Shown here one piece after another: positions 8,775-24,115 of a DNA stretch of 43,107 bases. The position numbers and the translations under genes are program-made. The stretch covers positions 1-43,107 of the forward strand of contig JAZRHB010000021.1 of the NCBI GenBank assembly GCA_045644605.1. Reading direction: 5' to 3'. Under the pieces are notes generated by a model. The model ran no database searches. It worked only from the letters and a program-made list of their open reading frames with translations, and had not been told where the DNA came from. Source of the stretch: Clostridia bacterium (GTDB lineage: Bacteria > Bacillota > Clostridia > RUG12999). Within the stretch, counting starts at the first letter, position 1. The number at the start of each line of letters is the position of its first letter.

Positions 8775-8864
8775 AACACCACAAGGTTTAAAACCATAAA
8801 TTTTGCGTAATACGGCAGAAAATTCTACAAATATACGCGAAAATCAGTTTTAAGGAGGAATGAT

Positions 8865-10163
8865 ATGGATAGTATCAGAAGTTATTTGAAAAACGAGGGG
8901 TATAATGTAATTGACGACTCGTTCTACAGCCATATTTCAAAATGGCTGGGTTGGTATCAGGGAAAGGTAAGCAGTTTTCACGATTATACGCAGTATAACG
9001 GGAAAACGGTGGTGGCACGAAGCAGAGCTACGCTCAGTATGGCAAAAAAAGTGTGTGAGGACTGGGCAAATCTTATTATGAATGAGAAAGTGAAAATCTG
9101 TGTCGGAAATGAAACGGCACAAAGCTTTCTTGATTCGGTGCTTGATAAAAACAATTTCAAGGTAAGGGCAAACCGTCTTACAGAAATTTGTTTTGCGCTT
9201 GGCACGGGCGCGTTTGTGGAATATAAGGATGGCGATGATGTTGTAATTGATTACATACGCGCCGATATGATATATCCGCTTTCGTGGGAAAACGGACGGA
9301 TTACCGGATGCGCATTTGCAAGCGAAAGAATTGTGGATGAGACAGAATGTGTGTATATGAATATACATACGCAGGAAAACGGCAGATATATTGTAAGAAA
9401 CAAGCTGTTTAAAGCGGAATATTCGGGTCTTACCGAAATGGCTTTGCCGGAGGGTGTTTTAGGGGAATACGAAGCAGGAGATATGCCGATGTTCCAGATT
9501 ATTACGCCGAATATTGTGAATAATATTGACCTTGATAACCCAATGGGGATTTCGGTTTTTGCGGACAGCATTGACGTGCTGAAAGGGATTGACCTTGTGT
9601 ATGACAGCTATCAGAATGAGTTCCGTCTTGGTAAAAAAAGAATTATTGTGCCGGCGGGTATGGCACAGATTTCGCAGGGGTCAGGATTTAATCCGTTGTT
9701 TGATGATAATGATACCGAATTTTATGCAATGACGGATAAGTCGCTTACGGATTTGCGTGAAATAAATATGGAGCTTCGTGCCGAGCCGCACGAAAAGGCG
9801 TTGCAGAAAAACCTAAATCTTCTTGCCGCAAAGTGCGGACTTGGCAATGATAGATACTTAAGCACCCGTAATGAGATAAAAACTGCAACAGAGGTCATAA
9901 GTGAGAAATCCGAGCTTTATCAAAATCTTAAAAAACACGAGCTTGTGTTTGAAAAGGCGGCTATTGATATGGCAAGGGCGGTGCTCTACCTTGGCGGGTT
10001 TGACACTCAGGATGTTACTGTTTTGTTTGATGACAGTATTATTGAGGACAGCGGTGCTATTGCAGAGCGTGCAATGGAGGAGCTTAAGAATGGAATTATT
10101 GATAAAAAGCAGTATCTTATGAGAGTATACAATATGAGCGAAAATCAGGCGGAAAAGTATTGA
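8865..10163 (+). CDS. Phage portal protein (A118/SPP1 gp6-like)
   Basis: Follows terL; SMAKKVCEDWANLIMNE, NPMGISVFADS, EFRLGKKRIIVP, KTATEVISE; AAGGAGG RBS. Confidence 0.9.
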   Translation: MDSIRSYLKNEGYNVIDDSFYSHISKWLGWYQGKVSSFHDYTQYNGKTVVARSRATLSMAKKVCEDWANLIMNEKVKICVGNETAQSFLDSVLDKNNFKVRANRLTEICFALGTGAFVEYKDGDDVVIDYIRADMIYPLSWENGRITGCAFASERIVDETECVYMNIHTQENGRYIVRNKLFKAEYSGLTEMALPEGVLGEYEAGDMPMFQIITPNIVNNIDLDNPMGISVFADSIDVLKGIDLVYDSYQNEFRLGKKRIIVPAGMAQISQGSGFNPLFDDNDTEFYAMTDKSLTDLREINMELRAEPHEKALQKNLNLLAAKCGLGNDRYLSTRNEIKTATEVISEKSELYQNLKKHELVFEKAAIDMARAVLYLGGFDTQDVTVLFDDSIIEDSGAIAERAMEELKNGIIDKKQYLMRVYNMSENQAEKY

Positions 10164-10188
10164 CAATAATGTAGTGGTATGGTAAAAT
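10160..10188 (+). promoter_or_regulatory. SigA promoter of the inserted SGNH gene
   Basis: TTGACA(10160)-17-TAAAAT(10183) with extended TG at 10180; the portal TGA stop lies inside the -35. Confidence 0.8.
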
Positions 10189-10213
10189 GACCCTTGAAAG
10201 AGGAGGGCTACAT

Positions 10214-10942
10214 ATGAAGCTTCGTGAAAAATTTATGAATTATGACGCTATGGGTGATGACAGAAACCCTATTACAATTGCTTTCTTTGGCGACAGCGTG
10301 ACTCACGGTGCGTTTGAAGGTATTATGACACCGAAAGGATATGCGGATGTTTTTGATTATGACAATGTATATCATAATGTGCTGAAACAGATGTTTGCGG
10401 AAATTTATCCGAGTGTGCCTGTTAACATTATAAATGCAGGTAAATCGGGAGATAATGCAACACATTCGCTCTGGCACGGATTTCTTGAAAGATTTGTACT
10501 TTGCTACAATCCTGACCTTACGGTTGTTTGCTTTGCACTTAATGATAGCGGTGGCGGTCTTGAGCTTCTTGAAAGATATGAAAATTCACTTCGTGAGATT
10601 TTCATAAAGCTTAAAGAAGCCGGTGGCGAGGTTATCTTTATGACGCCGAATATGACGGCTACATATATTTCGCCAGATATAGATGAAGATATGCGTCCAA
10701 GAGCAGAAAAAAATACAAGACGCTTTGAAACTGGAATACTTGAAAAATATGTTGAAGCAGCTAAAAAAGTGGCGGCAGAGTGCGGTGTTCCCGTGTGTGA
10801 CTGCTTTGCAAAATGGAAGAAGCTGTATCAGGCCGGGGTTGATGTTACAAGCTTGCTTGCTAATAAAATGAATCACCCTACAAGACCGATGCACATGATG
10901 TTCGCACATTCGCTTTTTGAAATGATTATGTTTGAAGACTAA
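10214..10942 (+). CDS. SGNH/GDSL hydrolase inside the head module
   Basis: FFGDSVTHG, INAGKSG, FALND, NHP; AGGAGG RBS before ATG 10214; own promoter and terminator. Confidence 0.9.
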   Translation: MKLREKFMNYDAMGDDRNPITIAFFGDSVTHGAFEGIMTPKGYADVFDYDNVYHNVLKQMFAEIYPSVPVNIINAGKSGDNATHSLWHGFLERFVLCYNPDLTVVCFALNDSGGGLELLERYENSLREIFIKLKEAGGEVIFMTPNMTATYISPDIDEDMRPRAEKNTRRFETGILEKYVEAAKKVAAECGVPVCDCFAKWKKLYQAGVDVTSLLANKMNHPTRPMHMMFAHSLFEMIMFED

Positions 10943-10956
10943 AAAACTTAATAATT

Positions 10957-10984
10957 AAGGACACTTAAAAGGTGTCCTTTTTTT
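10957..10984 (+). terminator. Intrinsic terminator
   Basis: AAGGACACT-TAAAA-GGTGTCCTT followed by a T run. Confidence 0.8.
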
Positions 10985-10985
10985 G

Positions 10986-11085
10986 TGCCCCGGGCATGGC
11001 GTTAAAACTGCCTTTTATATAGATTCTCCTGCAGTATGAGATATAAACTGCTGACCTTTTTTGTGGCGAAACCACATATAAAAAC
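10986..11085 (+). ncRNA. Candidate structured cis-RNA (tandem H-type pseudoknots) upstream of the scaffold gene
   Basis: Two units with compensatory stems (TGCC/GGCG + GGGCA/TGCCT; TCTC/GAGA + GCAGT/ACTGC), then a GTGG-CGAAA-CCAC hairpin before the RBS. Confidence 0.5.
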
Positions 11086-11099
11086 TAAAAGGAGGAAAT

Positions 11100-11651
11100 A
11101 TGGAATTTTTAAAAGAGGCACTGGGGGATGAGCTTTTTGGTGCGGTGGAAGAAAGGCTTGCGGGAAATGAAAATATCAAGCTTGCCAATCTGGCGGGCGG
11201 CGGATATGTAAGCCGCGAAAAATATACCGCGCTTGAAAATGAAAACGGTGCCAATAAAAAAATGCTTGAGGAGCAAAGCGGAAGACTTGCGGCGTATGAC
11301 GAAATGAAATTGGCATATGATGCGCTTAAAGAAAAATATGATGCGGACACTGCAGGGTTTGCACATAAGATGGCGGAAACGGGTAAATCACATGCGATTG
11401 ACATGGCACTTATGAGCCGCAGGGCTAAAAATATCAAAGCGGCGAGGGCACTTCTTGATATGGATAAAATTGAATTTAAGGACGGAGTGCTTTCCGGATT
11501 TGATGAGCAGATGGAAAGGGTTTTTGCCGATAATGAATATCTTTTCGGGGACGAAATAAAGCTTGCCGGAGGTATGAGGCATTTGGGCAAAAATCAGGCT
11601 TCTCAAGGCTTTTTACAGACAATTTATGAAAATCAGGCTAAAAGAAATTAG
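11100..11651 (+). CDS. Capsid scaffolding protein (Phage GP20 family)
   Basis: Coiled-coil with AKNIKAARALLDMDKI...LSGFDEQM...NEYLF signature; directly upstream of the capsid gene. Confidence 0.85.
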   Translation: MEFLKEALGDELFGAVEERLAGNENIKLANLAGGGYVSREKYTALENENGANKKMLEEQSGRLAAYDEMKLAYDALKEKYDADTAGFAHKMAETGKSHAIDMALMSRRAKNIKAARALLDMDKIEFKDGVLSGFDEQMERVFADNEYLFGDEIKLAGGMRHLGKNQASQGFLQTIYENQAKRN

Positions 11652-11660
11652 GAGGAAAAA

Positions 11661-12806
11661 ATGAGTTATTTAAAAGATGAATTAACAGGTTTTGTGCCTG
11701 CGGAGCAGGCAAAAGAAATTCTTGCAGGTATTGTAAGGGGATCAAGCGTTCTTCGCCTTTCTAAAGTAGAGGCAATGAATTCAGATAAAAAGAAATTCAA
11801 CGTTCTTGTTGACGGACCGGGTGCTTACTGGGTTGGCGAAGGTCAGAGAATTGAAACATCGGGTGCATCATGGATTCATCCCGAAATTGAGGCTAAAAAG
11901 CTTGCGGTTATTATTCCGGTTACAAAAGAAAAGCTGAACGATTCCACAATCAACGTGTTTGAAGAACTCAAACCGCAGATTCAGGAAGTGTTCTACAAAG
12001 CAATTGACAAGGCTTGTCTTTTCGGCGAAAATTCTCCATTTGCAACTAACGTTATGGCGGCGGCGGAAGGCTCTGGCATGGTTATAAAATCAAACAATGA
12101 TATTGACCTTGCAATTTCCGATACTATGGAAGCGGTTGAAGCTAACGGATACGAAGTTACAGGTTTTGCCGGTCATATCGGTGTTAAAAATGCACTCCGC
12201 AAATTAAGAGATGCAAATGACGCTCCGGTTTACATTGAAGGTATCAATGAAAAAGAACTTTATTCACAGCCGATTGAATTCGTTCGTAACGGTTCATGGG
12301 ATAAAAATAAAGCTGATATTATCGGCGGTGACTGGAAATACAGCATTGTTGGTATGCGTTCGGGTATCGAATTTGAAGTTCTTACTGAAGCAACTCTTCA
12401 GGGAACACTTGATGCCGACGGCAAACCGCTTTCTCTTGCAGAACAGGATATGATTGCTATTAAAGCTACTATGAGAATTGGCTATCTTGTTATTAAAGAC
12501 GATGCGTTTGCTGCATATAAATATGCAGCACCTGAAATAAGACCGCTTAATGTAACATCAACAGAAGGAAGCGAAGAAGGAACTACTGTTATTGAAGTAA
12601 CTCCGGATGCTTCTATGGGTAACAGCCTTGTTTACAAGGTTGGTGCATCAGCAACAGAAGTTTCCTACGATGAAGATTTATCTTCGTGGGATGTATTTGA
12701 CGGCAGAGAAATTTCTGCTACCGAAGGTCAGTACATTACTGTTGCGGAAACCGATACCCTTGGTCTTGCTAAAAAAGCCGGCAGCTGCGTTGTAGTTTGC
12801 AAATAA
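11661..12806 (+). CDS. Major capsid protein (HK97 fold) with C-terminal beta-rich extension
   Basis: GAYWVGEGQRIETS, AKKLAVIIPVTKEKLNDS, AIDKACLFG, SLAEQDMIAIKATMRIG; about 90 aa extra C-terminal domain. Confidence 0.92.
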   Translation: MSYLKDELTGFVPAEQAKEILAGIVRGSSVLRLSKVEAMNSDKKKFNVLVDGPGAYWVGEGQRIETSGASWIHPEIEAKKLAVIIPVTKEKLNDSTINVFEELKPQIQEVFYKAIDKACLFGENSPFATNVMAAAEGSGMVIKSNNDIDLAISDTMEAVEANGYEVTGFAGHIGVKNALRKLRDANDAPVYIEGINEKELYSQPIEFVRNGSWDKNKADIIGGDWKYSIVGMRSGIEFEVLTEATLQGTLDADGKPLSLAEQDMIAIKATMRIGYLVIKDDAFAAYKYAAPEIRPLNVTSTEGSEEGTTVIEVTPDASMGNSLVYKVGASATEVSYDEDLSSWDVFDGREISATEGQYITVAETDTLGLAKKAGSCVVVCK

Positions 12807-12818
12807 GCAGGTGGTAAT

Positions 12819-13151
12819 ATGCAGTATGTGGATTTTACATATTACAGCGAAGCCTTTGGGGGAGATTTAATCCCCCAGAGGCTTTTTGCCAGGTATGAGC
12901 TCAAGGCAAGAAGCTTTATTGATAATATTACGTTTGGGAATATTGAAGTCCCATGTGATGATAAAATAAAAACGGCTGTTTGTGAAATGTGTGAAGCATT
13001 CTACTGTGATGACGAAAAAAAGAACATTCATTCCGAGGAGCATGACGGATACGGTATTGTTTACGATGAAGATGTTCTTGAAGAAAAGCTTGCAAAAATT
13101 GCCGAAATTTATCTTGCGGCTACAGGATATCTGTACGGAGGGATTTATTAA
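12819..13151 (+). CDS. Head-tail adaptor (gp15-like)
   Basis: YVDFTYY...ARSFIDNITF...IKTAVCEM...YLAATGYLYGGI pattern and position after the capsid gene. Confidence 0.75.
   Translation: MQYVDFTYYSEAFGGDLIPQRLFARYELKARSFIDNITFGNIEVPCDDKIKTAVCEMCEAFYCDDEKKNIHSEEHDGYGIVYDEDVLEEKLAKIAEIYLAATGYLYGGIY
12851..12887 (+). terminator. Intragenic terminator-like hairpin just after the capsid gene
   Basis: AGCCTTTGGGGGA / TCCCCCAGAGGCT 13-bp stem (one G-U) followed by TTTT. Confidence 0.55.
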
Positions 13152-13441
13152 TGATTCTTCGCGGGGATATTACGGTATATGATAAAGATAAAAGGATGCA
13201 GTTTTGCGGTGTTCGTATATGCGACAGTACAAGTCTTGAGATGAAAGAACGCGGCGTGGTAAAATCGGGGAGCGTTATCATAAGGATTTTTGAAGATGGT
13301 GTAGTCATTCCGGAAGGAGCAAGGCTTGTGATTGGACACTGCGGGGACGAGGTTTGTCCCCCGCAGGCATTTTTTATTACAGCTGTTAAGAAAAATAAAG
13401 GTATTGGAAAAGCACATTATAAAGTGGTTGCCGAAAGGTAA
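13151..13441 (+). CDS. Putative head-closure protein
   Basis: Small beta-rich ORF (DITVY...IIRIF...HYKVVA) coupled to the adaptor; assigned mainly by synteny. Confidence 0.55.
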   Translation: MILRGDITVYDKDKRMQFCGVRICDSTSLEMKERGVVKSGSVIIRIFEDGVVIPEGARLVIGHCGDEVCPPQAFFITAVKKNKGIGKAHYKVVAER

Positions 13442-13843
13442 GTGATATTTTTGATTACAGAAAAAATAGTTGAAATAGTAAACGAATTTGATTGCATTAA
13501 AAATCGCTCTTGCGAGGTGGATTTTCTTGAAAATGACGGTATCAGTATAGTGCCGGTTTCAGATGATGAAATAAGGAAATATGTAAGCGGCGACGCACTC
13601 CGTCAGTTTGTATTTAAGCTTGTAGTAAATACGGATTATCTTAAAGAAAATGTAAAAGAAATTTACGGCTTTTTTGAACAGTTCAAATCGGAACTGGAAA
13701 GTCATAAGGCAGTGGATATAGATGATAATCTACAGGCACTTAATTTTTCGCAGGAGGGCGAGTTTGAGGCAGAGCATTTAAGCGCAGCTCAGATGAAATA
13801 CGCAGTGAAATGCTCTTTGAATTATTATAAAAGGGGAGAATAG
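13442..13843 (+). CDS. Putative tail terminator / tail completion protein
   Basis: VDFLE...SIVPV...RKYVSGDALRQFVF...KYAVKCSLNY; immediately before the tail tube gene. Confidence 0.65.
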   Translation: MIFLITEKIVEIVNEFDCIKNRSCEVDFLENDGISIVPVSDDEIRKYVSGDALRQFVFKLVVNTDYLKENVKEIYGFFEQFKSELESHKAVDIDDNLQALNFSQEGEFEAEHLSAAQMKYAVKCSLNYYKRGE

Positions 13844-13847
13844 ATAA

Positions 13848-14327
13848 ATGAATATTGTTAAAAGAAGCAAGGTACTTCCGTTTTATGCAGTAGATGACGG
13901 ACAGTTCGTAAGAATGACCGGATTTACACAGGCAAGCGTAAACAGAAGTCCGATTGAATATTCACGTCAGTATATTGATGAAGAATTCAAGAGAAATGAC
14001 GTTGTGGGTTATGATACTGCAATGTCTTTTTCTTTTGATTTGTTTGAAAACAATGCCGTACACAGCGATATTGCAAACATTGCTGAAAATGAGTTTGTTG
14101 GCGGCGATGCAATAAGAGAAATTGTCAGCGTTGATTTAAGCAGCGCTGATGAAAACGGCAGCTGCAAAGCAGTTAAAAGAAGTTTTTCCGTTATGGTTGA
14201 AAACGAAGGCGATGCAGCGGAAGCATACACATACAGCGGAAGCTTTAAAGCGTCCGGAGAAAAAGTGTTTGGCAGGGCAGTTTCGGAAGATAACTGGCAG
14301 ACCTGTACATTCGTACCCGGAGAATGA
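13848..14327 (+). CDS. Major tail (tube) protein
   Basis: RMTGFT...PIEYSRQYIDE...DVVGYD...YTYSGSFKASG...TFVP, typical of clostridial siphophage tail tubes; synteny. Confidence 0.75.
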   Translation: MNIVKRSKVLPFYAVDDGQFVRMTGFTQASVNRSPIEYSRQYIDEEFKRNDVVGYDTAMSFSFDLFENNAVHSDIANIAENEFVGGDAIREIVSVDLSSADENGSCKAVKRSFSVMVENEGDAAEAYTYSGSFKASGEKVFGRAVSEDNWQTCTFVPGE

Positions 14328-14881
14328 GTATTCTAAATACTCCGCTTCCTGAATATGTTGAAGCTTTTGGCGGGAATTATGGCATTTATACCGATTTCAG
14401 ACGGTGGATTGATTTTGAACAGATGATGAAAATTAACCCGCCGTCAAAGAGGTATGCCGAAATTTTTAAAAAATATTACATCTCGCTTCCGCCAAAATTT
14501 TCCGAGGCTGTTTATGCCCTTTGCAGGTTTTATGCAGGGGGCATTATGCCCCGGGGAAATACCGGGGGCAGAGGCAAGAGACTGTATTCGTATAAGCAGG
14601 ATGCTGATTTGATTTACTGTGCTTTTTATGCGCAGTATCATATTGACCTTGAAAAAGAAAATATGCATTGGTGGAAGTTTCTGACACTGTTTAGGGGGCT
14701 TGACCAAAACTCTAGGTTTATGCAGATTGTAAGACTTCGCAGTATGGATTTAAATGAAATAAAAGATAAAAATGAAAAAATAAGAGTTGCCGGACTTCAA
14801 AAGAAATATGCGCTTATTGATGAACGCAGTCCGGAAATAAAAGACGAAGATTTTGCAGATAAGATATCTATGCTGTTTTAG
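14324..14881 (+). CDS. Tail assembly chaperone (A118 Gp15 family)
   Basis: IYTDFRRWIDFE, YSYKQDADLIYCAFYAQYHIDL, MHWWKFLTLFRGL. Confidence 0.85.
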   Translation: MSILNTPLPEYVEAFGGNYGIYTDFRRWIDFEQMMKINPPSKRYAEIFKKYYISLPPKFSEAVYALCRFYAGGIMPRGNTGGRGKRLYSYKQDADLIYCAFYAQYHIDLEKENMHWWKFLTLFRGLDQNSRFMQIVRLRSMDLNEIKDKNEKIRVAGLQKKYALIDERSPEIKDEDFADKISMLF

Positions 14882-14905
14882 GAGGCGATTGAAATAAAAA
14901 TTGAT

Positions 14906-16066
14906 TTGAATGTTAAAAAGATATTATCCGATTATCTGGACTCAATTAAAGGGTCCATTGTAAATATAGGGAAAGAGAAAATCGGGAAAGCGCTTTTTGG
15001 GGGCGTGCGGGAAGCAGCTGTACCAAACAGCGGAGTTTTGAAAAAGCTTGCCGCAAATATGGTGAAAGCTATTGATGCAAAACATAAAGCGGGAGTTATC
15101 AGCGAGCAGGAATACTATAAAAAACTTGAAAATATACGTGATAAATATTTGAATAAGGGCAGTGTTGAATGGTGGAAATATACTGCAAAGATTGGTGAAT
15201 ACGAAAGTAAAGTGCTGGAGGAAAATGCCGAGGCGGTGGCTATTGCATATGAAGAGATGGCTGGCAGCGCGATGGAGAATGTAAGTAATCTGGCAGAGGA
15301 AGCAGAAAAAACGTTTGAAAATATTCTCAAACAGAAAGAAGAATTTTCGGAAAAGCTGTCCGATTACGGCGGACTTTATTCCAAAGGTACGGTTACGATT
15401 AAAAATGCCGGACCGGGAATGCAGCTTATTGATGGTTCGTGGATTGACCAGAAAGATATTGTTTTTGATTATGTGAAGTTTGCTGATTTTGAAAAACAGG
15501 TGAAGGTGCTTGAAGAGTATAAGGACGCACTACTTGGTATCAAAGAACGCGGAAATGTGCCATACGAGATATTTGATTCCATAAGAGAGCTTTCTGTTGA
15601 GGATGGTCTTGATGTTGCAAAGGCTCTTCTCAAAATGCCGGAGGGAGAGTTTAAGAAATATGTTGACGGATATCTGACTAAAAAACGGCTTGAAAGCGAA
15701 ATTACAAATGAAATTTTTAATAAAGATATCGAAAATGCAAAAACATATTATACAGAAACTACGAATGACCTTCTGGAAGAACTTTCAAAATCTTTTGAAA
15801 AAGTGCCCGAAAGTTTTGCTCTCGGAGGAATAGATTCTGCAAAAGCCTTTGGTGAGGGGTTTATGCAGAGTATCGACGGCATTATTGATGCCATCAAGAT
15901 TGAATTTGCAGAAAAATTAGGGGAAATAAGCGGACAGATATCAGTAGGATACGGCAACCCGAATGTATATAATTCGAACTATAATTTTTACGGAAGCGGG
16001 CAAACCGTAAGTCAACAGCTTGAACAGGCAAGAATTGCCGATACAGTGAACAGGTTAAGGGGGTAA
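14906..16066 (+). CDS. Short tape measure-like protein
   Basis: Helical/coiled-coil ORF between chaperone and Dit, ending in TMP-like GxxxAxxFGEG and NSNYNFY segments; start may be at 14888 or 14894 (AGGAGG at 14880). Confidence 0.65.
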   Translation: MNVKKILSDYLDSIKGSIVNIGKEKIGKALFGGVREAAVPNSGVLKKLAANMVKAIDAKHKAGVISEQEYYKKLENIRDKYLNKGSVEWWKYTAKIGEYESKVLEENAEAVAIAYEEMAGSAMENVSNLAEEAEKTFENILKQKEEFSEKLSDYGGLYSKGTVTIKNAGPGMQLIDGSWIDQKDIVFDYVKFADFEKQVKVLEEYKDALLGIKERGNVPYEIFDSIRELSVEDGLDVAKALLKMPEGEFKKYVDGYLTKKRLESEITNEIFNKDIENAKTYYTETTNDLLEELSKSFEKVPESFALGGIDSAKAFGEGFMQSIDGIIDAIKIEFAEKLGEISGQISVGYGNPNVYNSNYNFYGSGQTVSQQLEQARIADTVNRLRG

Positions 16067-16073
16067 TCGTGGA

Positions 16074-16919
16074 ATGTATATGTATTATAAAAATGATGCC
16101 GGAAAAATAGATTTCCGGTTTGGTGGGGATTACCCTGTAAGAGTTACGGATATTGACGGGCTGTATCCCCTTGAAAGGACGTTCAATACAGTAGCTTATG
16201 CCGATATTGACGGAGTTGACAGTGTATCTTCTTCTGTAGGGGGAAGAACGGTTACTGTTGGCGGAGATATAAAAATTTCAAACAAACAGTTTTTACGGGA
16301 TATTCTTAAGGTGCTTGACAAACCCGGGGAATTGTATATGGATTTCGGTGAGAAAAAACGAAAGCTTGTTTGCCACAATGCACATTTTACGCCGGGTGAA
16401 CGTAACAGCAAATATATGAGATTTGTTATTGTCTTTTCTTCCGATATGCCGTATTTTTACGGATTTGATGAGGAGACGGAATATATAAGAAAAAGGCAGA
16501 ATACAATAGGTTCAAACTTTATACTGCCGTGTGTTTTTACATCGAGCAACTCGGAAAGTGATATTATTGTAAATGGTGATGCCGAAAGCGAACCGGTTTT
16601 TGAAATAAAATGTATAAAAGAAACTACAATGCCGCCGGAAGAAGCCGGAATTACTGTGCTTAACGAAACAACCGGAGAAAGTATTAAGCTTTGTGTATAT
16701 CTTGTGCAGGATGAAGTTATTGAAATTGATGTTGAAAACAGAAAAATCACAAGCAGTGTGCGTGGGAATATGCTTAACTATATTTCCGAAGATACGTTCT
16801 TGCACAGATTCAAACTTATGCAGGGGGCAAATCATATAAAAGCTATCACTGATAATACAAATGAACAGATAAATGTTCTGTGCAGATACAGATGCCGGTA
16901 TATTGAGGGGGTTTATTGA
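16074..16919 (+). CDS. Distal tail protein (Dit)
   Basis: VTDIDGL, RTVTVGG, FSSDMPYFY, IVNGDAESEPVFEI, FKLMQGANHI, typical of the Sipho_tail family. Confidence 0.8.
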   Translation: MYMYYKNDAGKIDFRFGGDYPVRVTDIDGLYPLERTFNTVAYADIDGVDSVSSSVGGRTVTVGGDIKISNKQFLRDILKVLDKPGELYMDFGEKKRKLVCHNAHFTPGERNSKYMRFVIVFSSDMPYFYGFDEETEYIRKRQNTIGSNFILPCVFTSSNSESDIIVNGDAESEPVFEIKCIKETTMPPEEAGITVLNETTGESIKLCVYLVQDEVIEIDVENRKITSSVRGNMLNYISEDTFLHRFKLMQGANHIKAITDNTNEQINVLCRYRCRYIEGVY

Positions 16920-17920
16920 TGGAAGATATAAGATTATACGATTTTGATTTTAATCTTCTGTGTATTGAAAACCGTATAATATCAAGCAACTGGCATCTGA
17001 AAAACAATGATATAGGAAGCTTTGAAATGCATTTTACACCGGATAGTGAGGTTTGTGAAACTATTCAGGAAAGCTTTGACATAAAAAACAACAAGCTTAT
17101 TGTTGTTGTGCAAGGGAACAAACAGGGTATTCTGACGGGGTTTCGCGTTAAAGATGAGATTGCTATTTATGGTAAGACATGCAATTTTTTGCTTTCAAAA
17201 AGATTGGTGCCGAAATTTACCACCAATGGTCTTGATATAAAAAAAGATGTGGAAAGCATTTCGCGGTATTGCGTGGAAAATGCGTTTTCTGATGTGGAGA
17301 ATTTTGTGATTGGTGATGCTCGGGGCTTTGACGAAATATATGTGGATGATAAGCATTTCTGGAGAAATGTATATAATCCGGCAAGCGAAGTTGTGCACGA
17401 CCTTATGGATATCGGTGGCGGCGGTCATTTTGTTTTATTTGATATAAAGAATAAAAAATGGGTTTTTAATACAACAAAAAACACGGTCAATCCAATGATT
17501 ATTTCTGTGCAGATGAAAAATGCGTATGGTATTGAGAATACAAAAATGATTGGTGATTACTGCAGCTGCGGATGGTATGAGATGCAGCAGAAAATGGAAG
17601 ATGGTGTGCGCCCGGATTCCGTATGGACTTATATAGAAAAAGATGAAAAAACCGGAATTTACAGGTGGGAAGGAAAACTTGACGGATTATACGAAAGCGA
17701 GGCAATATCAGACCTTGAAAATAAAAAAATTACTGATGATACAGAGCTTTCTCTTCGTAAAATATATTTTGAAAAAGATTTTCAGCTTGGAGATATTATC
17801 ACGCTTCAGTATAAGTTTGGAAGATATGAAAAAACAGTACAAAAAATTATAGACGGAGTATATCTTACATTTGAAAACAATAACATATCGGAAAAACCGG
17901 TTTTTAAGGAGGTTAAATAA
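16919..17920 (+). CDS. Tal / baseplate hub protein (ReqiPepy6 Gp37-like)
   Basis: IRLYDFDFNLL...IGSFEMH...FLLSKRLV...YFEKDFQLGDIIT; follows Dit. Confidence 0.75.
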   Translation: MEDIRLYDFDFNLLCIENRIISSNWHLKNNDIGSFEMHFTPDSEVCETIQESFDIKNNKLIVVVQGNKQGILTGFRVKDEIAIYGKTCNFLLSKRLVPKFTTNGLDIKKDVESISRYCVENAFSDVENFVIGDARGFDEIYVDDKHFWRNVYNPASEVVHDLMDIGGGGHFVLFDIKNKKWVFNTTKNTVNPMIISVQMKNAYGIENTKMIGDYCSCGWYEMQQKMEDGVRPDSVWTYIEKDEKTGIYRWEGKLDGLYESEAISDLENKKITDDTELSLRKIYFEKDFQLGDIITLQYKFGRYEKTVQKIIDGVYLTFENNNISEKPVFKEVK

Positions 17921-18735
17921 TGGGATTTAGTGTTGATTTTATAGATAATAACTCCATTTCGGCAGAGTCACTTAATGAAATTCTTGCCGAGGTGGGAGAT
18001 GACAGTGTAAGCGCAAGCAGTGAATTTGTTAACGAAAGTTTGTTTTATACTGACAAGCTGAACTGCATAAGAAGCGAAATTGTGACGGGTGGAATACGCT
18101 CCGGCTGCGAGGCGGCTCTTTGTGAGACAGGTGTTATCATAGGTGAAGGCTTATGCTTTTTTGACAGCGGTATGAGAATGAAAATTGATGCAGAGGGAAT
18201 TTCACTTACTGTTTCGGCAGACAAAGAAAATTTTGTTTATTTATATGCATCAACAAATTTAAACATTGCCACTGCGGTAGTAACCACGGAGAAAAAAGAA
18301 GGAAACGAATATGTGCCGGTATGCAGGATTGATGCAGATGGAGTTCTTTATGATGAAAGAGTGTGGTGCTGTTCGAAAATTCCGATGATGAATTCGAGAT
18401 TTGTGCAAAAAGAGACATTTACACTTTCAAACAGCGCATCGGGGACGGTTCTTGTGAAACAGGTACCGCTTGTATGTAAAGCATATGCATACATAATCGT
18501 TATGGCTAAAGGAAGTATAGCTGTTTATTCGCGTGATACGGGGAAATATACATATATCATTACCACCGGGGTATACGGTGCGGATCGTAAGGTTGATATG
18601 GACTATTTTAAAATAGGATATGACAGCGGTAATAACTATTACGGAAACGTGCATTTTGAGGAAGCAAGCTCCTGTATTAACATATTTATCAGAGGAACAC
18701 AGTCTAAAAAAGAAGTTGAGATGATTGTGTTATAA
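17920..18735 (+). CDS. Putative baseplate/tail structural protein
   Basis: AAGGAGG RBS, beta-rich, position after Tal; C-terminal part is Tyr/Gly-rich. Confidence 0.55.
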   Translation: MGFSVDFIDNNSISAESLNEILAEVGDDSVSASSEFVNESLFYTDKLNCIRSEIVTGGIRSGCEAALCETGVIIGEGLCFFDSGMRMKIDAEGISLTVSADKENFVYLYASTNLNIATAVVTTEKKEGNEYVPVCRIDADGVLYDERVWCCSKIPMMNSRFVQKETFTLSNSASGTVLVKQVPLVCKAYAYIIVMAKGSIAVYSRDTGKYTYIITTGVYGADRKVDMDYFKIGYDSGNNYYGNVHFEEASSCINIFIRGTQSKKEVEMIVL

Positions 18736-18744
18736 GGAGGCAGT

Positions 18745-19245
18745 ATGATTGAGTATAGAATAAAAATAGATACAAAAAGTGAAAAAATTTATTACAGTGA
18801 TTTTATATTTACAACAGGAGACGTGCGTGCATATAAATTTGTATTTGATTTTGTGGATTGTGATACGGAAAACTGCAGTATTGGTGTAAAAGCAAAACGT
18901 GCGGACGGCACTGTTGTAATTGCAAAAAGCAGTGATTGCAAAAGCTTTGTACTGCCCGGAAACATGTACGCTGTAGCGGGAGAGGTTTTGTTTGAAATTG
19001 CTCTTTATGATGCGGCGGGCGGTTGCATCACAACCAAGGTTGTTGCGGCAACTGTGCGAAAAGGGTTTGGTGAAGAAGGACTTGCATCGGACGACAGATA
19101 TCCGGTGCTGACATCTATGATTAATGAAGTGAACGCACTTAAATTTTCTGTTATTGATGCTATTACGGAATTGGGCGATATTTCTGCCGCACTTGATGAA
19201 ATTATAGCTATGCAAAACAGTCTGATTGGCGGTGAGTCTGTATGA
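18745..19245 (+). CDS. BppU-like upper baseplate protein
   Basis: FTTGD...VKAKRADG...YAVAGEVLFEIALYD...YPVLTSMI followed by coiled-coil. Confidence 0.65.
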   Translation: MIEYRIKIDTKSEKIYYSDFIFTTGDVRAYKFVFDFVDCDTENCSIGVKAKRADGTVVIAKSSDCKSFVLPGNMYAVAGEVLFEIALYDAAGGCITTKVVAATVRKGFGEEGLASDDRYPVLTSMINEVNALKFSVIDAITELGDISAALDEIIAMQNSLIGGESV

Positions 19246-20030
19246 GCATTGCAAATAAGCTGACGATGGTTGCTGATAATGAGAAAAAAGTATATGATGC
19301 AGGGCAAGGGGCAGGTTATATTGACGGCTTTAATGACGGTTCGGCAAACGGAAAAAAGCTTGGCAAAGAAGAAGGAAAAAAAGAACAATATAACTTGTTT
19401 TGGAACAAGTTTCAACGATGGGATGAGGCAACGCAAACAACAAAAAGAGAAGACTACAGACGTGCTTTTGCTTATTGGTATTTAGCTGATGAAATATTTA
19501 AACCAAAATATGATGTTGTTCCTGTTGGTGATGCATCTTATATGTTTTGGAATTTCAGAACATGGGCTGATTTAACTAACATTACAAATATGGACGGCAA
19601 AGTTATAAACTTTGATTTTTCGAAAGTAACAAAATTTGCTTATATGTTTGATAATTCGTTGATTAAAAATGCGGGGACTGTAGATTGTAGTTCAACTAAT
19701 TCTTTAGACAATGCTTTTTTTAACGCAACAAGCCTTAAAACTATAGAAAGGCTTATACTGCACGAGAGGATTACAAGTTATAGTTATTGTTTTGCCAACA
19801 CGTCACTACTACAGGACATAACGGTTGAAGGAACTATTGCCGGAACAGGTATATTTCTTTCTGCACATACAGGATTAACACACGATAGCTTGATGAGCTT
19901 TATTAATGCTTTAAAAGATTATTCAGATACTGCTACAACAAAAACTATAACATTTGGTGCAACGAATTTAGCTAAATTAACCGATAGCGAAAAAGCGATA
20001 GCGACACAGAAAGGATGGACACTGGCGTGA
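19242..20030 (+). CDS. Putative receptor-binding/tail fibre protein with BspA/DUF285-like repeats
   Basis: Repeated YMF/NAF/YCF-type units (DFSKVTKFAYMFDNS, DCSSTNSLDNAFFNA) and the phage-type C-terminus LTDSEKAIATQKGWTLA. Confidence 0.6.
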   Translation: MSIANKLTMVADNEKKVYDAGQGAGYIDGFNDGSANGKKLGKEEGKKEQYNLFWNKFQRWDEATQTTKREDYRRAFAYWYLADEIFKPKYDVVPVGDASYMFWNFRTWADLTNITNMDGKVINFDFSKVTKFAYMFDNSLIKNAGTVDCSSTNSLDNAFFNATSLKTIERLILHERITSYSYCFANTSLLQDITVEGTIAGTGIFLSAHTGLTHDSLMSFINALKDYSDTATTKTITFGATNLAKLTDSEKAIATQKGWTLA

Positions 20031-20206
20031 TTGAAACGACAATTGAATTAAGAAAACTTACTGCTGCAGAGGGGATGACTTTAACAAATGGTGAAGAGTT
20101 TGGAAAAGAAATATTTCTTGGTAAAAATGACAGTGCTGATAACTGGTACGAAATAACAGATGAAGAAGCAGAAAACCTGCAGAAAGAGCAACCAATGGAG
20201 GAATAA
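20027..20206 (+). CDS. Small phage protein (possible fibre chaperone)
   Basis: GTGA overlap with the upstream stop; KLTAAEGMTLTNGE...IFLGKNDSADNWYEITDEEAE pattern often follows fibre genes. Confidence 0.6.
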   Translation: MIETTIELRKLTAAEGMTLTNGEEFGKEIFLGKNDSADNWYEITDEEAENLQKEQPMEE

Positions 20207-20207
20207 A

Positions 20208-20528
20208 ATGGAAGCTATAATAATGGCGGCAGGAATTCCATCTGCAATAACGGGGCTTCTTGTGTGGTGGGTAAAAAAGAAAATTGATAAGCAGGATGAA
20301 GAGCGTCAGGAACGCGAAAAAAATCAGGAACGGCTGATGATACTTATTATGCAGACGGGCAGGGCAACAAGTGTCCTGTCCGAAGCCACCGCCCGTGCGG
20401 TACAACGCATCCCCGATGCGCATTGCAATGGCGATATGAAAAAGGCACTTGATGATGCCAAACGAATTCAGACAGAAGAAAAGGATTTTCTTATAAACAA
20501 AGGGATTAAACATATTTTTGAGGAGTGA
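20208..20528 (+). CDS. Single-TM membrane protein of the lysis module (holin-like/accessory)
   Basis: GGAGG RBS; N-terminal TM ([16 protein letters not shown]), coiled-coil and HCNGDM motif. Confidence 0.65.
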
Positions 20529-20533
20529 TTGGG

Positions 20534-20716
20534 ATGATGTGGATAAAAGCAGCAGGTATAAGGGCGGTTAAAACAGTGGCGCAGACGGCTATTGCAACAA
20601 TAGGAACGGCGGCTGCAATGGGTGATGTGAACTGGATTATGGTAGGAAGTGCAGCAATTCTTGCAGGTATATTGTCACTTCTTACATCTGTGGCAGGGCT
20701 GCCGGAAGTGAAATGA
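20534..20716 (+). CDS. Holin (phage r1t family)
   Basis: [22 protein letters not shown]...DVNW...[17 protein letters not shown]. Confidence 0.88.
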
Positions 20717-20717
20717 T

Positions 20718-21404
20718 ATGGATATAATTAAAGATTTTGTTCCGGCACATAAATACGGGCTGAAATGTCCGTATTCTATGGTGCCGGAATTTTTTGTAAT
20801 ACATAACACATCGGGAGATGCAAGCGCAAAAAACGAGATTGCATATATGAAGAATAATAACTTGCAGACAAGCTTTCATTTTGCTGTGGATGACGTTGGA
20901 GTTCGCCAGGGCATCCCGATTGACCGCAATGCATTCCATGCAGGCGACGGTATGAAAGGTAAGGGTAACCGCAAGGGGATTGGCGTTGAGATATGCTATT
21001 CCAAATCAGGCGGCGAGAGGTTTGAAAAAGCGGAGGAAAAAGCGGCGGAATTTGTGGCGGAAAAGCTGATAGAATTCAGATGGGGAATTGATAAAGTAAA
21101 AAAGCATCAGGATTTTTCGGGTAAATACTGTCCGCACCGCACACTTGACTTTGGCTGGGAAAGATTTTTGAAAAAGGTGGAATTATATATGGATTTACTT
21201 AAAAGGGTTGAAGCTCTTGAAAAAAAGACGGATAAATTTATCTATGCGTGGGTGGATGATAATATGCCGGACTGGGCAAAGCCTACGGTAACAAAGCTTA
21301 TGAATAAAGGGATTCTGAAAGGCGACGAAGAAGGCAAACTGAACCTTGATGAAACAATGCTACGTATGCTTGTTATAAATGACAGGGCGGGATTGTATGA
21401 TTAA
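20718..21404 (+). CDS. Endolysin, N-acetylmuramoyl-L-alanine amidase (Amidase_2, XlyA-like) with SLH-like C-terminus
   Basis: IHNT, SFHFAVDD, AFHAGDG, IGVEIC, KHQDFSGKYCP; C-terminal PDWAKPTVTKLMNKGILKG. Confidence 0.92.
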   Translation: MDIIKDFVPAHKYGLKCPYSMVPEFFVIHNTSGDASAKNEIAYMKNNNLQTSFHFAVDDVGVRQGIPIDRNAFHAGDGMKGKGNRKGIGVEICYSKSGGERFEKAEEKAAEFVAEKLIEFRWGIDKVKKHQDFSGKYCPHRTLDFGWERFLKKVELYMDLLKRVEALEKKTDKFIYAWVDDNMPDWAKPTVTKLMNKGILKGDEEGKLNLDETMLRMLVINDRAGLYD

Positions 21405-21924
21405 AAATAAATATGTGTCCTTCAGCGACAAGTGGAAACACCGTGTGTCGGTTGTTGATATTAAAAGGTGCTTGCCTTGTAAAGAAAAGCATGGTAAAAT
21501 ATATGGTATAGAGGAGTTTGTTTTTGATGCTCCGCCCGACCATTTATTCTGCCGCTGCAGAATTGAAAAAATGCGAGCAGTGATTGCAGGAAATGCAACG
21601 GAAAAAGGGGTGGACGGAGCGGATTGGTATCTGAAATATTACGGAATATTGCCGTATTATTATATTTCATATGACTATGCCGAAAAAGCAGGGTGGCGAT
21701 CTGGAAAGCCAAACTTACATTTAAAATGTCCGGGAAAGATGATAACAAGAGGACGATATAGAAACGACAACGGACACTTACCCTTAAGCCCCGGACGAAT
21801 ATGGTATGAGGCGGATATTGACTATGAAAGCGGAAGGAGAAATTCAAAGCGCATAGTATATTCCAATGACGGGCTGATTTTTGTTACATATGATCATTAC
21901 CATACATTTGTTGAAATAAAATAG
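21397..21924 (+). CDS. MuF-motif-barnase fusion (putative ribonuclease toxin)
   Basis: N-terminal CLPC..HGKIY....PPDHLFCRC (MuF/phage head morphogenesis C-terminal motif); remainder aligns by eye to barnase (YL..Y..LP..YI, GW, NL, PGK, WYEADIDY.SG.RNSKRIVYSNDGLIF.T.DHY.TF). Confidence 0.88.
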   Translation: MIKNKYVSFSDKWKHRVSVVDIKRCLPCKEKHGKIYGIEEFVFDAPPDHLFCRCRIEKMRAVIAGNATEKGVDGADWYLKYYGILPYYYISYDYAEKAGWRSGKPNLHLKCPGKMITRGRYRNDNGHLPLSPGRIWYEADIDYESGRRNSKRIVYSNDGLIFVTYDHYHTFVEIK

Positions 21925-21935
21925 GGGGTAGCAAC

Positions 21936-22259
21936 GTGAAAGAACATGATGAAAGCTATTATGAGTTTAAAGAAATAAAGGAAAATCCTATAATAATTGA
22001 TTTTTCTTCGTGTAGACCGGAGGAAATACATACAATGCTGAAAGAAAAATTCGGATTTCCGGAATATTACGGGGAAAACTTAAGTGCATTGTGGGATTGC
22101 CTTGATGGACTATTTTACGGTGAAGGAGAATATAAGGTGAAGATATACGGATACAATTCTCTTGATGAAGATGTTAAGGAATATTGCGGGAAAATACTAA
22201 AAATATTTGATGATGTACACAAACGAACACCAAACATAACCTTTGAAATTATTTCGTAA
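21936..22259 (+). CDS. Barstar family ribonuclease inhibitor (immunity protein)
   Basis: LKEKFGFPEYYGENLSALWDCL matches barstar LPEYYGENLDALWDCL; directly downstream of the barnase-like gene. Confidence 0.93.
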   Translation: MKEHDESYYEFKEIKENPIIIDFSSCRPEEIHTMLKEKFGFPEYYGENLSALWDCLDGLFYGEGEYKVKIYGYNSLDEDVKEYCGKILKIFDDVHKRTPNITFEIIS

Positions 22260-22261
22260 TC

Positions 22262-22290
22262 TTGACAATATTTCCCCAAAGTAGTAAAAT
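22262..22290 (+). promoter_or_regulatory. SigA promoter of htpG
   Basis: TTGACA(22262)-17-TAAAAT(22285). Confidence 0.75.
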
Positions 22291-22321: not shown

Positions 22322-24115
22322 ATGGCAAAAGGTAATATTGCAGTACATACCGAGAACATTTTTCCTGTGATAAAGCAGTGGCTTTATTCAGACAAGGATA
22401 TATTTGCACGTGAGCTTGTTTCAAACGGCTGCGATGCTATTTCCAAACGCAAAAAGCTTGTGCTTGATGGGGAAGCAAAGGCGCCTGAAAAGTTTGAAAT
22501 TAAGGTTACGGTTGATAAACCTAATAAAAAGCTTATTTTCAGCGATAACGGACTTGGAATGACAGCTGAAGAAATCGAAAAATACATTACTCAGGTGGCA
22601 TTTTCCGGTGCGGAAGATTTCTTAAGTAAATATAAGGATGACAAAACCACATCCATAATCGGTCATTTTGGACTTGGCTTTTATTCCGCTTTTATGGTGG
22701 GTGATACGGTTGAAATTGAAAGTCTTTCGTATAAAGAGGGCGCAAAACCTGCAAAATGGAGCTGCGACGGTGGCACAGAATATGAAATCGGCGAAGGCTC
22801 AAGAACTGAGGTGGGTACGGATATTATCCTGAACGTAGGTGAGGAAAACGAAGAATTTCTTGACTATTCAAGAATAAGCGGAATTTTATATAAATATTGC
22901 TATTTCCTGCCCGTTGACATTTATGTAATAAACGCAGAGGATGAAAAATCCGGCGAAAAACCGTTTAACGATAAAGAGCCGCTGTGGCTTAAAAAACCGT
23001 CCGAATGCACAGAAGAGGAATATAAAGATTTTTATACAAAAGTGTTTATGGATATGGATGCGCCGCTGTTCTGGATTCATCTTAATGTAGATTTTCCGTT
23101 TAACTTAAAAGGCATCATCTATTTCCCGAAGCTCAAGCACGAGGCAAGCGGTCTTGAAGGACAGATTAAGCTGTATAATAATCAGGTGTTTGTTGCGGAT
23201 AATATAAAAGAGGTTATTCCCGAATATCTTATGATGCTCCGCGGCTGTATTGACTGTCCTGACCTTCCGCTTAACGTATCAAGAAGCTTCCTTCAGAATG
23301 ACGGATATGTTAAAAAGGTATCGGCACACATTATCAAAAAGGTTTGCGATAAGCTGACCGGAATGTTTAATACCGAACGTGAAACGCTTGAAAAATACTG
23401 GGATGACATCAGTCCGTTTGTGAAATACGGCAGCATGAGAGATGAAAGCTTTTACGAAAAAGTAAAAGATATTGTAATGCTCAAAACCACCAAAGGCGAG
23501 TATAAAACTGTTGCTGAATATCTTGAAAGTGCAGATGAAAAGCATAAAAATATCATTTATTATGCTACAAATGCGGATGTTCAGGCGCAGTATATCGATA
23601 TGTATGAACAAGACGGGGTAGAGGTGGTAACCTTCCCGCTTGCAATAGATACGCATTTTATGAGTTTCTGCGAATTTAAAAACCGCGATATAAGATTCAA
23701 ACGTGTGGATTCCGAAATCACATCGGGCGCAGAAACCGATAAGGATGTAGCGGAAAAGCTTACAAAAATATTTAAAGACAGCATTGGCGATGATAAGCTT
23801 ATTATAGAATGTCGTGACCTTAAAACGACAGAACTTCCTGCAATAATCAATATGTCGGAAGAGGCAAGAAGACTTAATGAAATGAGTGTTCTTATGGGTG
23901 GTAATATGCCCGAAATCCCCGATGAGAAGAAGCTTATTGTAAATACGGGCTGTGCAATCACATCATCAATTTTAGCAAGTGAAGATGAGGAGTATAACAA
24001 GCTTGTATGTAACTACATTTATGACCTTGCAAGCCTTGCACACGCACCGCTTACAAGCGAGCAGATGAAGGCTTTTCTTGACCGCTCGGCAAAAATACTT
24101 GAACGAACGAAATAA
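22322..24115 (+). CDS. htpG: Chaperone HtpG (Hsp90)
   Basis: LYSDKDIFARELVSNGCDA, DNGLGMT, IGHFGLGFYSAFMV, DLPLNVSR; GGAGG RBS before ATG 22322. Confidence 0.97.
   Translation: MAKGNIAVHTENIFPVIKQWLYSDKDIFARELVSNGCDAISKRKKLVLDGEAKAPEKFEIKVTVDKPNKKLIFSDNGLGMTAEEIEKYITQVAFSGAEDFLSKYKDDKTTSIIGHFGLGFYSAFMVGDTVEIESLSYKEGAKPAKWSCDGGTEYEIGEGSRTEVGTDIILNVGEENEEFLDYSRISGILYKYCYFLPVDIYVINAEDEKSGEKPFNDKEPLWLKKPSECTEEEYKDFYTKVFMDMDAPLFWIHLNVDFPFNLKGIIYFPKLKHEASGLEGQIKLYNNQVFVADNIKEVIPEYLMMLRGCIDCPDLPLNVSRSFLQNDGYVKKVSAHIIKKVCDKLTGMFNTERETLEKYWDDISPFVKYGSMRDESFYEKVKDIVMLKTTKGEYKTVAEYLESADEKHKNIIYYATNADVQAQYIDMYEQDGVEVVTFPLAIDTHFMSFCEFKNRDIRFKRVDSEITSGAETDKDVAEKLTKIFKDSIGDDKLIIECRDLKTTELPAIINMSEEARRLNEMSVLMGGNMPEIPDEKKLIVNTGCAITSSILASEDEEYNKLVCNYIYDLASLAHAPLTSEQMKAFLDRSAKILERTK

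Follow-up and report, generated by a model that had tools for sequence, protein, structure and literature searches.

The DNA analysed here was contig JAZRHB010000021.1 of a Clostridia bacterium (assembly GCA_045644605.1), a stretch of 43,107 nt that is called the window throughout. Its subject is a pair of genes behind the lysis genes of a phage-like cluster: a toxin gene, in which a piece resembling the MuF (SPP1 gp7-type) head proteins of phages is joined to a barnase-type RNase, and a barstar-type immunity gene directly downstream. Features were assigned from open reading frames (ORFs), Pfam profiles, family alignments, AlphaFold2 (AF2) models and Foldseek searches. The pair and its borders were as follows.

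20525-20716, + strand: holin, r1t-type (Pfam and ORF)
20718-21404, + strand: Amidase_2 endolysin (Pfam and ORF)
21397-21924, + strand: toxin gene, 175 aa, putative MuF-derived N-terminal domain (N-domain) fused to a barnase domain (ORF, Pfam, family alignments, AF2 model)
21397-21603, + strand: N-domain (residues 1-69), beta-hairpin with a CxxC...HxxCRC putative zinc knuckle (PF04233 match below the cut-off, AF2, Foldseek)
21604-21921, + strand: barnase domain (residues 70-175; family profile, Foldseek, catalytic residues)
21925-21935, + strand: 11-nt spacer with a G-rich ribosome-binding site (sequence)
21936-22259, + strand: barstar-type immunity gene, 107 aa, GTG start (PF01337)
22262-22290, + strand: promoter-like site for htpG, TTGACA-17-TAAAAT, 11/12 consensus (motif inspection), beginning 3 nt past the barstar stop
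22322-24115: htpG (HtpG 97.5% identical in the sister species G001)

The toxin ORF ran from an ATG at 21397 to a stop codon at 21922-21924, and its start shared 8 nt with the endolysin stop, an arrangement by which the toxin appears to be translationally coupled to the endolysin; because of this coupling its synthesis would coincide with that of the late and lysis proteins, shortly before the cell lets particles go. No terminator-like site was seen between the lysin, toxin and barstar genes in a scan of the sequence, and no strong promoter of the toxin's own was seen in the window. The promoter-like site for htpG marks the right edge of the cassette. Base composition was without anomaly across the cassette and hence gave no sign of recent transfer. 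In a search of sequencing runs no RNA run with this DNA was listed, and the DNA runs listed had small shares only, at most 0.14. The toxin N-terminus, as read from the sequence and the AF2 model, had no hydrophobic stretch and no obvious export signal, and was modelled as a beta-strand.

The toxin was the sole match to Ribonuclease (PF00545) in the whole genome, with 40.2 bits against a cut-off of 24 over its residues 95-174. A family profile paired residues 70-174 with barnase 5-109 (E 4e-35; offset 65), so that the barnase domain is complete and reaches beyond the 80 residues marked by Pfam. Of the barnase active site, E73 was found as E138 (in WYEAD), R83 and R87 as R148 and R152 (in RRNSKR) and H102 as H167 (in DHY), and all four were invariant (114/114) when the conservation of core residues was counted over 114 family members. 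The K27 and R59 sites were both substituted in the window toxin, by Y92 and D124, respectively; since these sites carry K or R in only part of the family (57/114 and 68/114), the substitutions are a lineage-specific trait. The AF2 model of the whole toxin (predicted local distance difference test, pLDDT, 91.1; predicted template modelling score, pTM, 0.86) retrieved barnase in Foldseek at a template modelling (TM) score of 0.87-0.89, normalised to the target, with 47-50% identity in the alignments.

The N-domain matched MuF profiles at scores under the curated cut-offs. Phage_Mu_F (PF04233) gave 24.9 bits against a cut-off of 29.6, with residues 13-56 on profile positions 67-111 of 112, and NCBIfam TIGR01641 gave 23.1 bits against 39.65; the final 45 positions of the MuF/SPP1-gp7 domain are represented by residues ~10-60 of the toxin, an assignment that is sub-cut-off in Pfam and is backed by fold. 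The toxin was the sole PF04233 match in the window genome, and precomputed PF04233 matches were present in many of its relatives. The motif C25-x2-C28 ... P46-P47-x-H49-x2-C52-R53-C54 was read off the toxin sequence, and C25, C28, H49, C52 and C54 were each retained in 111-114 of the 114 members. Modelled on their own, the first 69 residues formed a long beta-hairpin closed by the Cys/His cluster (AF2, pLDDT 91). When this model was searched against BFVD with Foldseek, most of the named matches in the top 50 were MuF, minor capsid or head morphogenesis proteins (probability 0.92-1.0, TM ~0.5-0.6, E 1e-3 to 1e-1), the best at a root mean square deviation of ~2 Å over ~50 columns; the weak E-values are in keeping with the small size of the domain. 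A fold search of the PDB with the N-domain returned nothing at E <1, and a search of the ESM Atlas minus PF00545 returned three small clusters (score 0.87), two of them partly PF04233, which are a lead only. On the profile and fold matches together the N-domain was accepted as probably homologous to the C-terminal motif of MuF, and its Cys/His cluster may bind zinc. The high pTM of the whole-toxin model suggests that the N-domain packs firmly on the barnase domain. It was basic, with a median net charge of +4 and a positive charge in 54 of 65 sequences.

Searched as a profile against 1.84 billion representatives, the N-domain gave 2799 matches at E <= 1e-3 and 167 at E <= 1e-10. Among the best 150 representatives, a barnase was detectable in 58, and the remaining 92 were, by eye, mostly short or frameshifted ORFs opening the conserved linker into barnase; long classical MuF proteins without a toxin numbered only 2, and no swapped toxin domain was seen on the module. 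Because relatives of the N-domain carry barnase or are pieces of the same protein, the module is fixed to barnase, and the joining of one MuF domain to varied toxin domains, as in the MuF polymorphic toxins, was not found within these 150. One representative (P0191, 98 aa) had the N-domain and linker joined directly to a barstar-like C-terminus, and looks like a deletion that took out the barnase domain.

The immunity protein matched Barstar (PF01337) at 62.7 bits against a cut-off of 23.4; PF01337 was its only Pfam domain, and no DNA-binding domain was found by Pfam. Its residues 29-59 aligned with barstar 15-45, a region that holds D35 and D39, which we take to be acidic residues of the binding helix; the D39 equivalent was kept (D54) and the D35 equivalent was replaced by Ser (S50). 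Comparison was extended to 83 loci (79 genomic, 4 on viral contigs), in 78 of which a barstar lay directly 3' of the toxin (tblastn, looser threshold), and the D39 equivalent was retained in 76 of 78 loci. Barnase R59 and barstar D35 presumably touch in the complex, and the two sites varied together: a basic residue at the toxin R59 site was paired with an acidic barstar D35 site in 32 of 37 loci, and an acidic one with a non-acidic D35 site in 17 of 20 (Fisher p 1.2e-4, related loci counted as independent). Two to four barstars were present in 13 of the 83 loci. In the sister species G001, three tandem barstar paralogues followed the toxin (L108 10033-11023), each 75-78% identical to the single copy of the window and diverging most in the RNase-contacting helix. 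The window barstar resembled G001 copies 1-2 at its N-terminus and copy 3 at its C-terminus, as if it were a mosaic from copies that had recombined or been deleted.

The earlier note on this DNA, made from the letters alone, had described about 60 N-terminal residues with a MuF-type motif, a barnase-like RNase without a signal peptide in which the Glu, two Arg and His of the active site were present and the K27 and R59 equivalents replaced, a barstar 11 bp downstream, and a position after the lysis genes. These domain calls and the position were borne out; in the profile search that it had proposed, Ribonuclease and Barstar scored above their cut-offs and Phage_Mu_F below.

The toxin belongs to a large family of uniform build. 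A search restricted to proteins of 96-307 aa yielded 1530 candidates, among which the short MuF-barnase architecture accounted for 1516 protein clusters at E <= 1e-3; the members listed were mostly 168-176 aa long, carried PF00545 and PF04233, and were named 'phage head morphogenesis protein' where named. Only two longer close relatives (311-313 aa) were found, the other long matches being RHS and CdiA toxins that share the barnase part alone, and the short architecture is, to judge from these sequences, an old and fixed form. In the genome collection at least 593 loci were confirmed in Clostridia species genomes. Among the carriers listed, all were Clostridia (Oscillospiraceae, Acutalibacteraceae and others), mostly metagenome-assembled genomes from gut and rumen; two were cultured, Pseudoflavonifractor sp. 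MSJ-30 and Faecousia intestinalis CLA-AA-H192. IMG/VR held only 4 relatives and a collection of 50,697 phage records none, and plasmids gave barnase-domain matches only, mostly from Bacillus, none of which covered 80% of the query. The toxin was found in 12 of 41 relatives, and any toxin match in 43 of 300 near-complete genomes taken as a class-level sample (the order-level sample comprised 13 genomes only); in-frame stops were present in 5 full-length or near-full-length toxin matches of the class sample.

To judge by its surroundings the pair behaves as an autonomous cassette, with flanks that are otherwise unrelated. When the window proteins were searched by tblastn on the 83 loci, the toxin was found in 83, the barstar in 69, the lysin in 2 (L003 and one other), holin, capsid and large terminase (TerL) in 1 each, and the portal in none. 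When the flanking ORFs were clustered, no third family was shared by more than 15 loci. With Pfam, 148 upstream ORFs (73 loci, to ~2.2 kb) returned 194 families, the commonest being XRE-type helix-turn-helix (HTH; 12 ORFs), transposase (5), PG_binding_1 (3) and Prophage_tail (2); the corresponding scan of 145 downstream ORFs (70 loci) returned 182 families, none in more than 3 ORFs. Each neighbour scan was read for its 25 commonest families. Transposase or integrase genes lay near the pair in a few loci. Among 75 larger same-strand ORFs 2.2-10 kb upstream (38 loci), PHROGs assigned 2 portals, at most 2 TerL and 2 integrases, and in 50 carrier genomes Terminase_6N was found within 25 kb on the toxin contig in 4 and an SPP1-type portal in 1. 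XRE-type HTH genes of ~200-270 aa stood divergently (minus strand) 90-250 nt upstream of the toxin in L007, L008, L021, L035, L051, L052, L054, L062 and L071, and may encode a dedicated regulator of the pair.

About 8 of the 83 loci were phage-linked, a share of ~10% that is a lower bound because flanks of 10 kb were used and the scans showed the commonest families only; in L025, for example, TerL lies just past the 10-kb flank. The earlier note had named an occurrence mostly apart from virion clusters as counting against its reading, and at family level such an occurrence was seen. The phage-linked loci were these.

L003 (locus of the sister species G001): lysin, toxin, barstar, htpG
L004: TerL, internal virion protein, two endolysin-like genes, then toxin
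L025: portal, structural protein, holin, endolysin, then toxin
L084 and L085: tail endopeptidase, PG-binding lysin-like gene, then toxin
L053, 9965-12262: toxin and barstar directly upstream of the TerL gene, a different phage slot
L082 and L083: phage-linked

The pair thus followed lysis genes directly in five loci (L003, L004, L025, L084 and L085) of four phage-like clusters, and never a portal gene. The clusters in L004 (959-10852) and L025 (2641-10809) were only 9-10 kb long, counted from TerL or the portal up to the endolysin; they had no recognisable tail genes and no tblastn match to genes of the window cluster, and both ended in toxin and barstar.

In the window the cassette stands at the end of a phage-like cluster.

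6715-21404, + strand: compact phage-like cluster, 14.7 kb (Pfam, PHROGs; conservation in relatives)

Its genes encode a ParB-like protein, TerL, an SPP1-type portal (89.1 bits), a GDSL hydrolase, scaffold, capsid, adaptor, tail completion and tail proteins, a 386-aa protein, Dit, holin and lysin; no integrase, repressor or replication genes were seen in the cluster between groEL and htpG. The GDSL/SGNH hydrolase gene (10187-10942) fills the slot between portal and scaffold that is normal for MuF genes, and the toxin lies ~11 kb further on, past the lysin. A portal 57-63% identical, in one copy per genome and in conserved gene order, was found in g2, g3 (6/6), g6 (2/2) and g8 (1/2) of the same family and was not found in g5 or g7; the pattern of the toxin was the reverse, with 0/6 in g3, 4/5 in g5 and 4/5 in g7, and none in g6, where the portal was present in 2/2. 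In G004 the syntenic cluster ended lysin-holin without a toxin, and toxin and barstar were not found by tblastn in the stretches examined from related clusters. These clusters also show no MuF gene, since the PF04233 matches in g3 genomes lay on contigs other than the portal's and G004 has only ~400 nt between its portal and scaffold genes. As the cluster is without a MuF gene of its own and its relatives are without the toxin, the cassette is an addition specific to the genus of the window species, g1. It is older than the split between this species and G001, where the order lysin, toxin, barstar, htpG is the same, because synonymous divergence (dS) was alike across genes (toxin 0.69, lysin 0.64, htpG 0.62). 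The ratio of non-synonymous to synonymous divergence (dN/dS) was 0.17 for both the toxin and the barstar copy next to it, as against 0.09 (lysin) and 0.02 (htpG), values that indicate purifying selection on the toxin. In G002 both the lysin and the barstar genes are cut by contig ends, so that the missing toxin match there is an assembly gap. The cluster itself has the look of a gene transfer agent or a defective prophage that is passed on vertically and is possibly domesticated.

Among known systems the pair is closest in layout to the MuF polymorphic toxins, with which it shares the N-terminal MuF-type sequence, the C-terminal toxin, a small immunity gene directly downstream, extra immunity genes in some loci and occurrence in gut Firmicutes. 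It differs from them in having the last 45 of 112 Pfam MuF positions only, in a protein of 175 aa as against roughly 300-1000 aa, in a module tied to one toxin type and therefore not polymorphic, and in its place, which is not beside the portal; ~10% of loci are phage-linked, and the late-operon ones follow the lysin. For comparison, passages of Jamet et al. 2017 (PMC5576092) give a portal or terminase near 85-87% of muf genes and place 96% of these genes in prophages or remnants; characterised MuF toxins include Apk2 and Bxa, as described in part of PMC11699363. The toxin-first gene order is described for polymorphic toxins in passages of Zhang 2012 (PMC3482391), which also list Tox-Barnase with MuF trafficking and Imm-Barstar. 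With barnase-barstar of Bacillus amyloliquefaciens and with binase (PDB 1BRS, 1A2P, 1GOU) the pair has in common the full fold, the catalytic residues and the D39 equivalent in barstar helix 2, as well as the order of toxin then inhibitor. Unlike that barnase, the window toxin has no obvious signal peptide, carries one more domain at its N-terminus and has other residues at the K27 and R59 sites; the D35 equivalent is replaced in step with R59, inhibitor genes form arrays, and the window pair is inside a phage late operon. SPP1 gp7 and 80alpha gp44 share the CxxC...HxxCRC motif and the fold, but are ~300 aa long, are encoded between portal and scaffold and have no toxin domain; according to passages of PMC6316719 and PMC7290940 they occur in capsids at ~1-2 copies and bind DNA. 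In nuclease colicin operons, too, a toxin and a tight immunity protein are co-expressed with lysis and the specificity of immunity diversifies; colicins, however, have receptor-binding and translocation domains and are plasmid-borne and Gram-negative, whereas here a phage holin and endolysin bring about lysis and the toxin has no evident domain for uptake.

The explanation that we favour, with a probability of roughly 0.6 for the whole of it, is a mobile toxin-immunity cassette that was captured behind the lysin and acts as a delivered competition toxin. On this reading the pair represents a two-gene cassette that is widespread among gut and rumen Clostridia and moves horizontally. Its toxin would be a cytoplasmically made and catalytically competent barnase-type RNase whose N-terminus is a fixed 60-residue module from the C-terminal zinc-knuckle-like motif of phage MuF head proteins, and its barstar would neutralise the toxin via the classical barnase-barstar interface. 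In this genus the cassette was taken up into the gap that separates the endolysin from the htpG promoter; this is the distal end of the head-tail-lysis cluster, which is inherited vertically and never had a MuF gene of its own. The data show the identities of the domains, their conservation, the autonomy of the cassette, the history of its insertion and the covariation at the interface. From the immunity arrays, the toxin-first order, the decaying toxin copies, the charge covariation at the interface and the lack of a PADLOC match, we infer a delivered inter-bacterial toxin and not a toxin-antitoxin module, with the MuF-derived module probably serving as its trafficking or docking part. Among the routes of the toxin, loading into capsids through the portal is given the most weight, though well short of even odds; toxin-antitoxin or abortive infection and release by lysis with the N-domain as an accessory receive smaller and equal shares, and the remainder is left to other routes. 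The more specific proposal that this 60-residue remnant is a minimal portable capsid-docking tag, by which the RNase would ride in trans in the heads of SPP1-type phages, transfer-agent-like particles or superinfecting phages, we hold to be rather unlikely; if it were true, the cassette would act either as a weapon that particles carry to neighbours lacking barstar or as a 'poisoned capsid' defence, and the domesticated head-tail-lysis cluster of the window would be a delivery vehicle.

MuF toxins are a recognised class that has barely been tested, and here the MuF part is cut to ~60 conserved residues on a well-understood enzyme-inhibitor pair, by which it becomes testable whether such a piece is enough for loading of capsid cargo, or whether it binds zinc or nucleic acid or regulates the enzyme. 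The label 'phage head morphogenesis protein' in databases is misleading for most copies, since these lie outside phages. The combination of MuF, barnase and barstar had already been catalogued, as passages of Zhang 2012 (PMC3482391) make clear. No description of the minimal fixed architecture was found in the literature searched, and short MuF-barnase entries may be held in the supplementary toxin-domain tables of Jamet 2017; for the abundance, the mostly non-phage setting, the post-lysin slot in phages and the immunity arrays, too, no description was found in that literature.

Several points weigh against the favoured explanation. The MuF assignment is under the curated cut-offs of both Pfam and NCBIfam, and rests on a match of 45 positions and on Foldseek E-values of 1e-3 to 1e-1; the loss of the K27 and R59 equivalents may lower the activity of the window toxin; the covariation test takes related loci as independent; and the census of neighbours read Pfam within ~2.2-2.6 kb of the pair, together with the 75 larger upstream ORFs, so that single lysin or tail genes may be undercounted. 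There is also an excess of SPP1-type portals among carriers, which speaks for some phage link: in the 300 near-complete class genomes such a portal was present in 10 of 19 toxin carriers and in 81 of 281 others (odds ratio 2.7, p 0.04, uncorrected for kinship), and in 3 of the 19 the toxin lay 9-23 kb downstream of it on the same strand. This excess bears on the capsid-loading tag that the earlier note had suggested, by which the toxin would bind the portal of its own cluster or of a co-resident SPP1-type phage, be packed and be injected into non-immune cells, with the barstar protecting producer and kin. We regard this as possible though doubtful. It fits the absence of any other export signal on the toxin, the coupling of its gene to the late operon, a window cluster with an SPP1-type portal and no MuF gene of its own, the passages of PMC3482391 in which the N-terminal domain of a polymorphic toxin sets its route and Tox-Barnase and Imm-Barstar are listed with MuF, and those of PMC6316719 in which the portal targets SPP1 gp7 to procapsids. 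However, only 45 of 112 Pfam positions are kept of a protein normally ~300 aa long, portal binding is mapped to the retained part in no passage found, and in the AF2 model (pTM 0.86) the N-domain sits rigidly against barnase and is no free tag. Most cassettes have no phage gene nearby and have ordinary chromosomal neighbours, an SPP1-type portal was present in only 11 of 50 carrier genomes, and two carriers, G035 (100% complete) and G011 (96%), had no match to the portal and capsid profiles searched (PF05133, PF04860, PF05065), although TerL was present in both, at 8.3 kb upstream of the toxin in G035; relatives in viral collections were confined to the 4 of IMG/VR. Across genomes the association of the MuF piece with portals is weak and inconsistent. 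The rigid packing is in line with another reading, a nuclease-colicin-like RNase whose complex with barstar is freed by holin and endolysin, the N-domain being a basic nucleic-acid-binding or regulatory extension and the target being competitors or extracellular RNA. The pair stands directly behind lysis genes in the four phage-like clusters named above, and the N-domain is basic; in passages of PMC7290940, gp44 of 80alpha, from the MuF position, binds DNA by its C-terminal domain, and the retained piece may likewise bind nucleic acid, the correspondence of that region to the N-domain motif being an assumption. Such release is nonetheless unlikely, and a little more so than the toxin-antitoxin module considered next, in that no route is known by which free barnase could enter a Gram-positive competitor and most cassettes are not beside lysis genes. 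The barnase-barstar complex is, moreover, extremely tight, and a released complex would stay inhibited.

A toxin-antitoxin, abortive-infection or addiction module, in which the RNase is set free once the locus is lost or a phage attacks, and, in the case of attack, the MuF-like piece might be a decoy that senses an incoming portal, would account for a two-gene, cytoplasmic and mobile pair of patchy distribution, for the divergent XRE-type regulator in 12 of 148 upstream ORFs and for the transposase or integrase genes near a few loci, and the end of a prophage-like element is a common site for cargo of the toxin-antitoxin type. We give it a small share of the probability all the same. The order is toxin-first and the barstar lacks a DNA-binding domain, inhibitor genes in tandem arrays of 2-4 are typical of immunity to foreign toxins, and PADLOC matched 0 families; the toxin start lies inside the endolysin gene end with no strong promoter seen, and a toxin that is silent unless the lysis operon fires would defeat a role in addiction or sensing. 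The addiction module that the earlier note had offered as its alternative is, on the toxin-first order, the barstar arrays and the coupling to the endolysin, a poor fit. That note had also held that most of the MuF domain was gone and the gene relocated. Taken as an event in this cluster, a full-length MuF-barnase would have left its place at the portal for the lysis end and shed the first two thirds of its MuF part. A GDSL hydrolase in the post-portal slot and the lack of any other MuF match in the genome agree with such decay, but the short form is the norm of the family (1516 clusters against 2 longer forms), the toxin is under purifying selection (dN/dS 0.17) with near-invariant Cys and His, and related clusters show neither MuF gene nor toxin nor barstar. 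Local truncation and relocation of the cluster's own MuF gene are contradicted by the family-wide short form and by the toxin-less, MuF-less related clusters, and we consider them very improbable, so that of the first interpretation the domain calls and the position stand and this part falls.

Some further features of the phage-like cluster were recorded. The ParB/Noc-like gene (6715-7476) overlaps the start of TerL by 4 nt and occupies the place of the small terminase; it was only 70% identical in G002, as against 93-97% for TerL, portal and capsid. The portal-scaffold GDSL/SGNH hydrolase was 84% identical in G002, and a second GDSL lipase gene lies just outside the cluster on the minus strand (5932-6555). 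The 386-aa protein (14906-16066) is in the position of a tape measure and matched nothing in PHROGs; as the tape measure of a siphovirus it would be very short. The major capsid protein (11661-12806) carries a C-terminal S-layer SbsC-like domain (PF18316, 58 bits).

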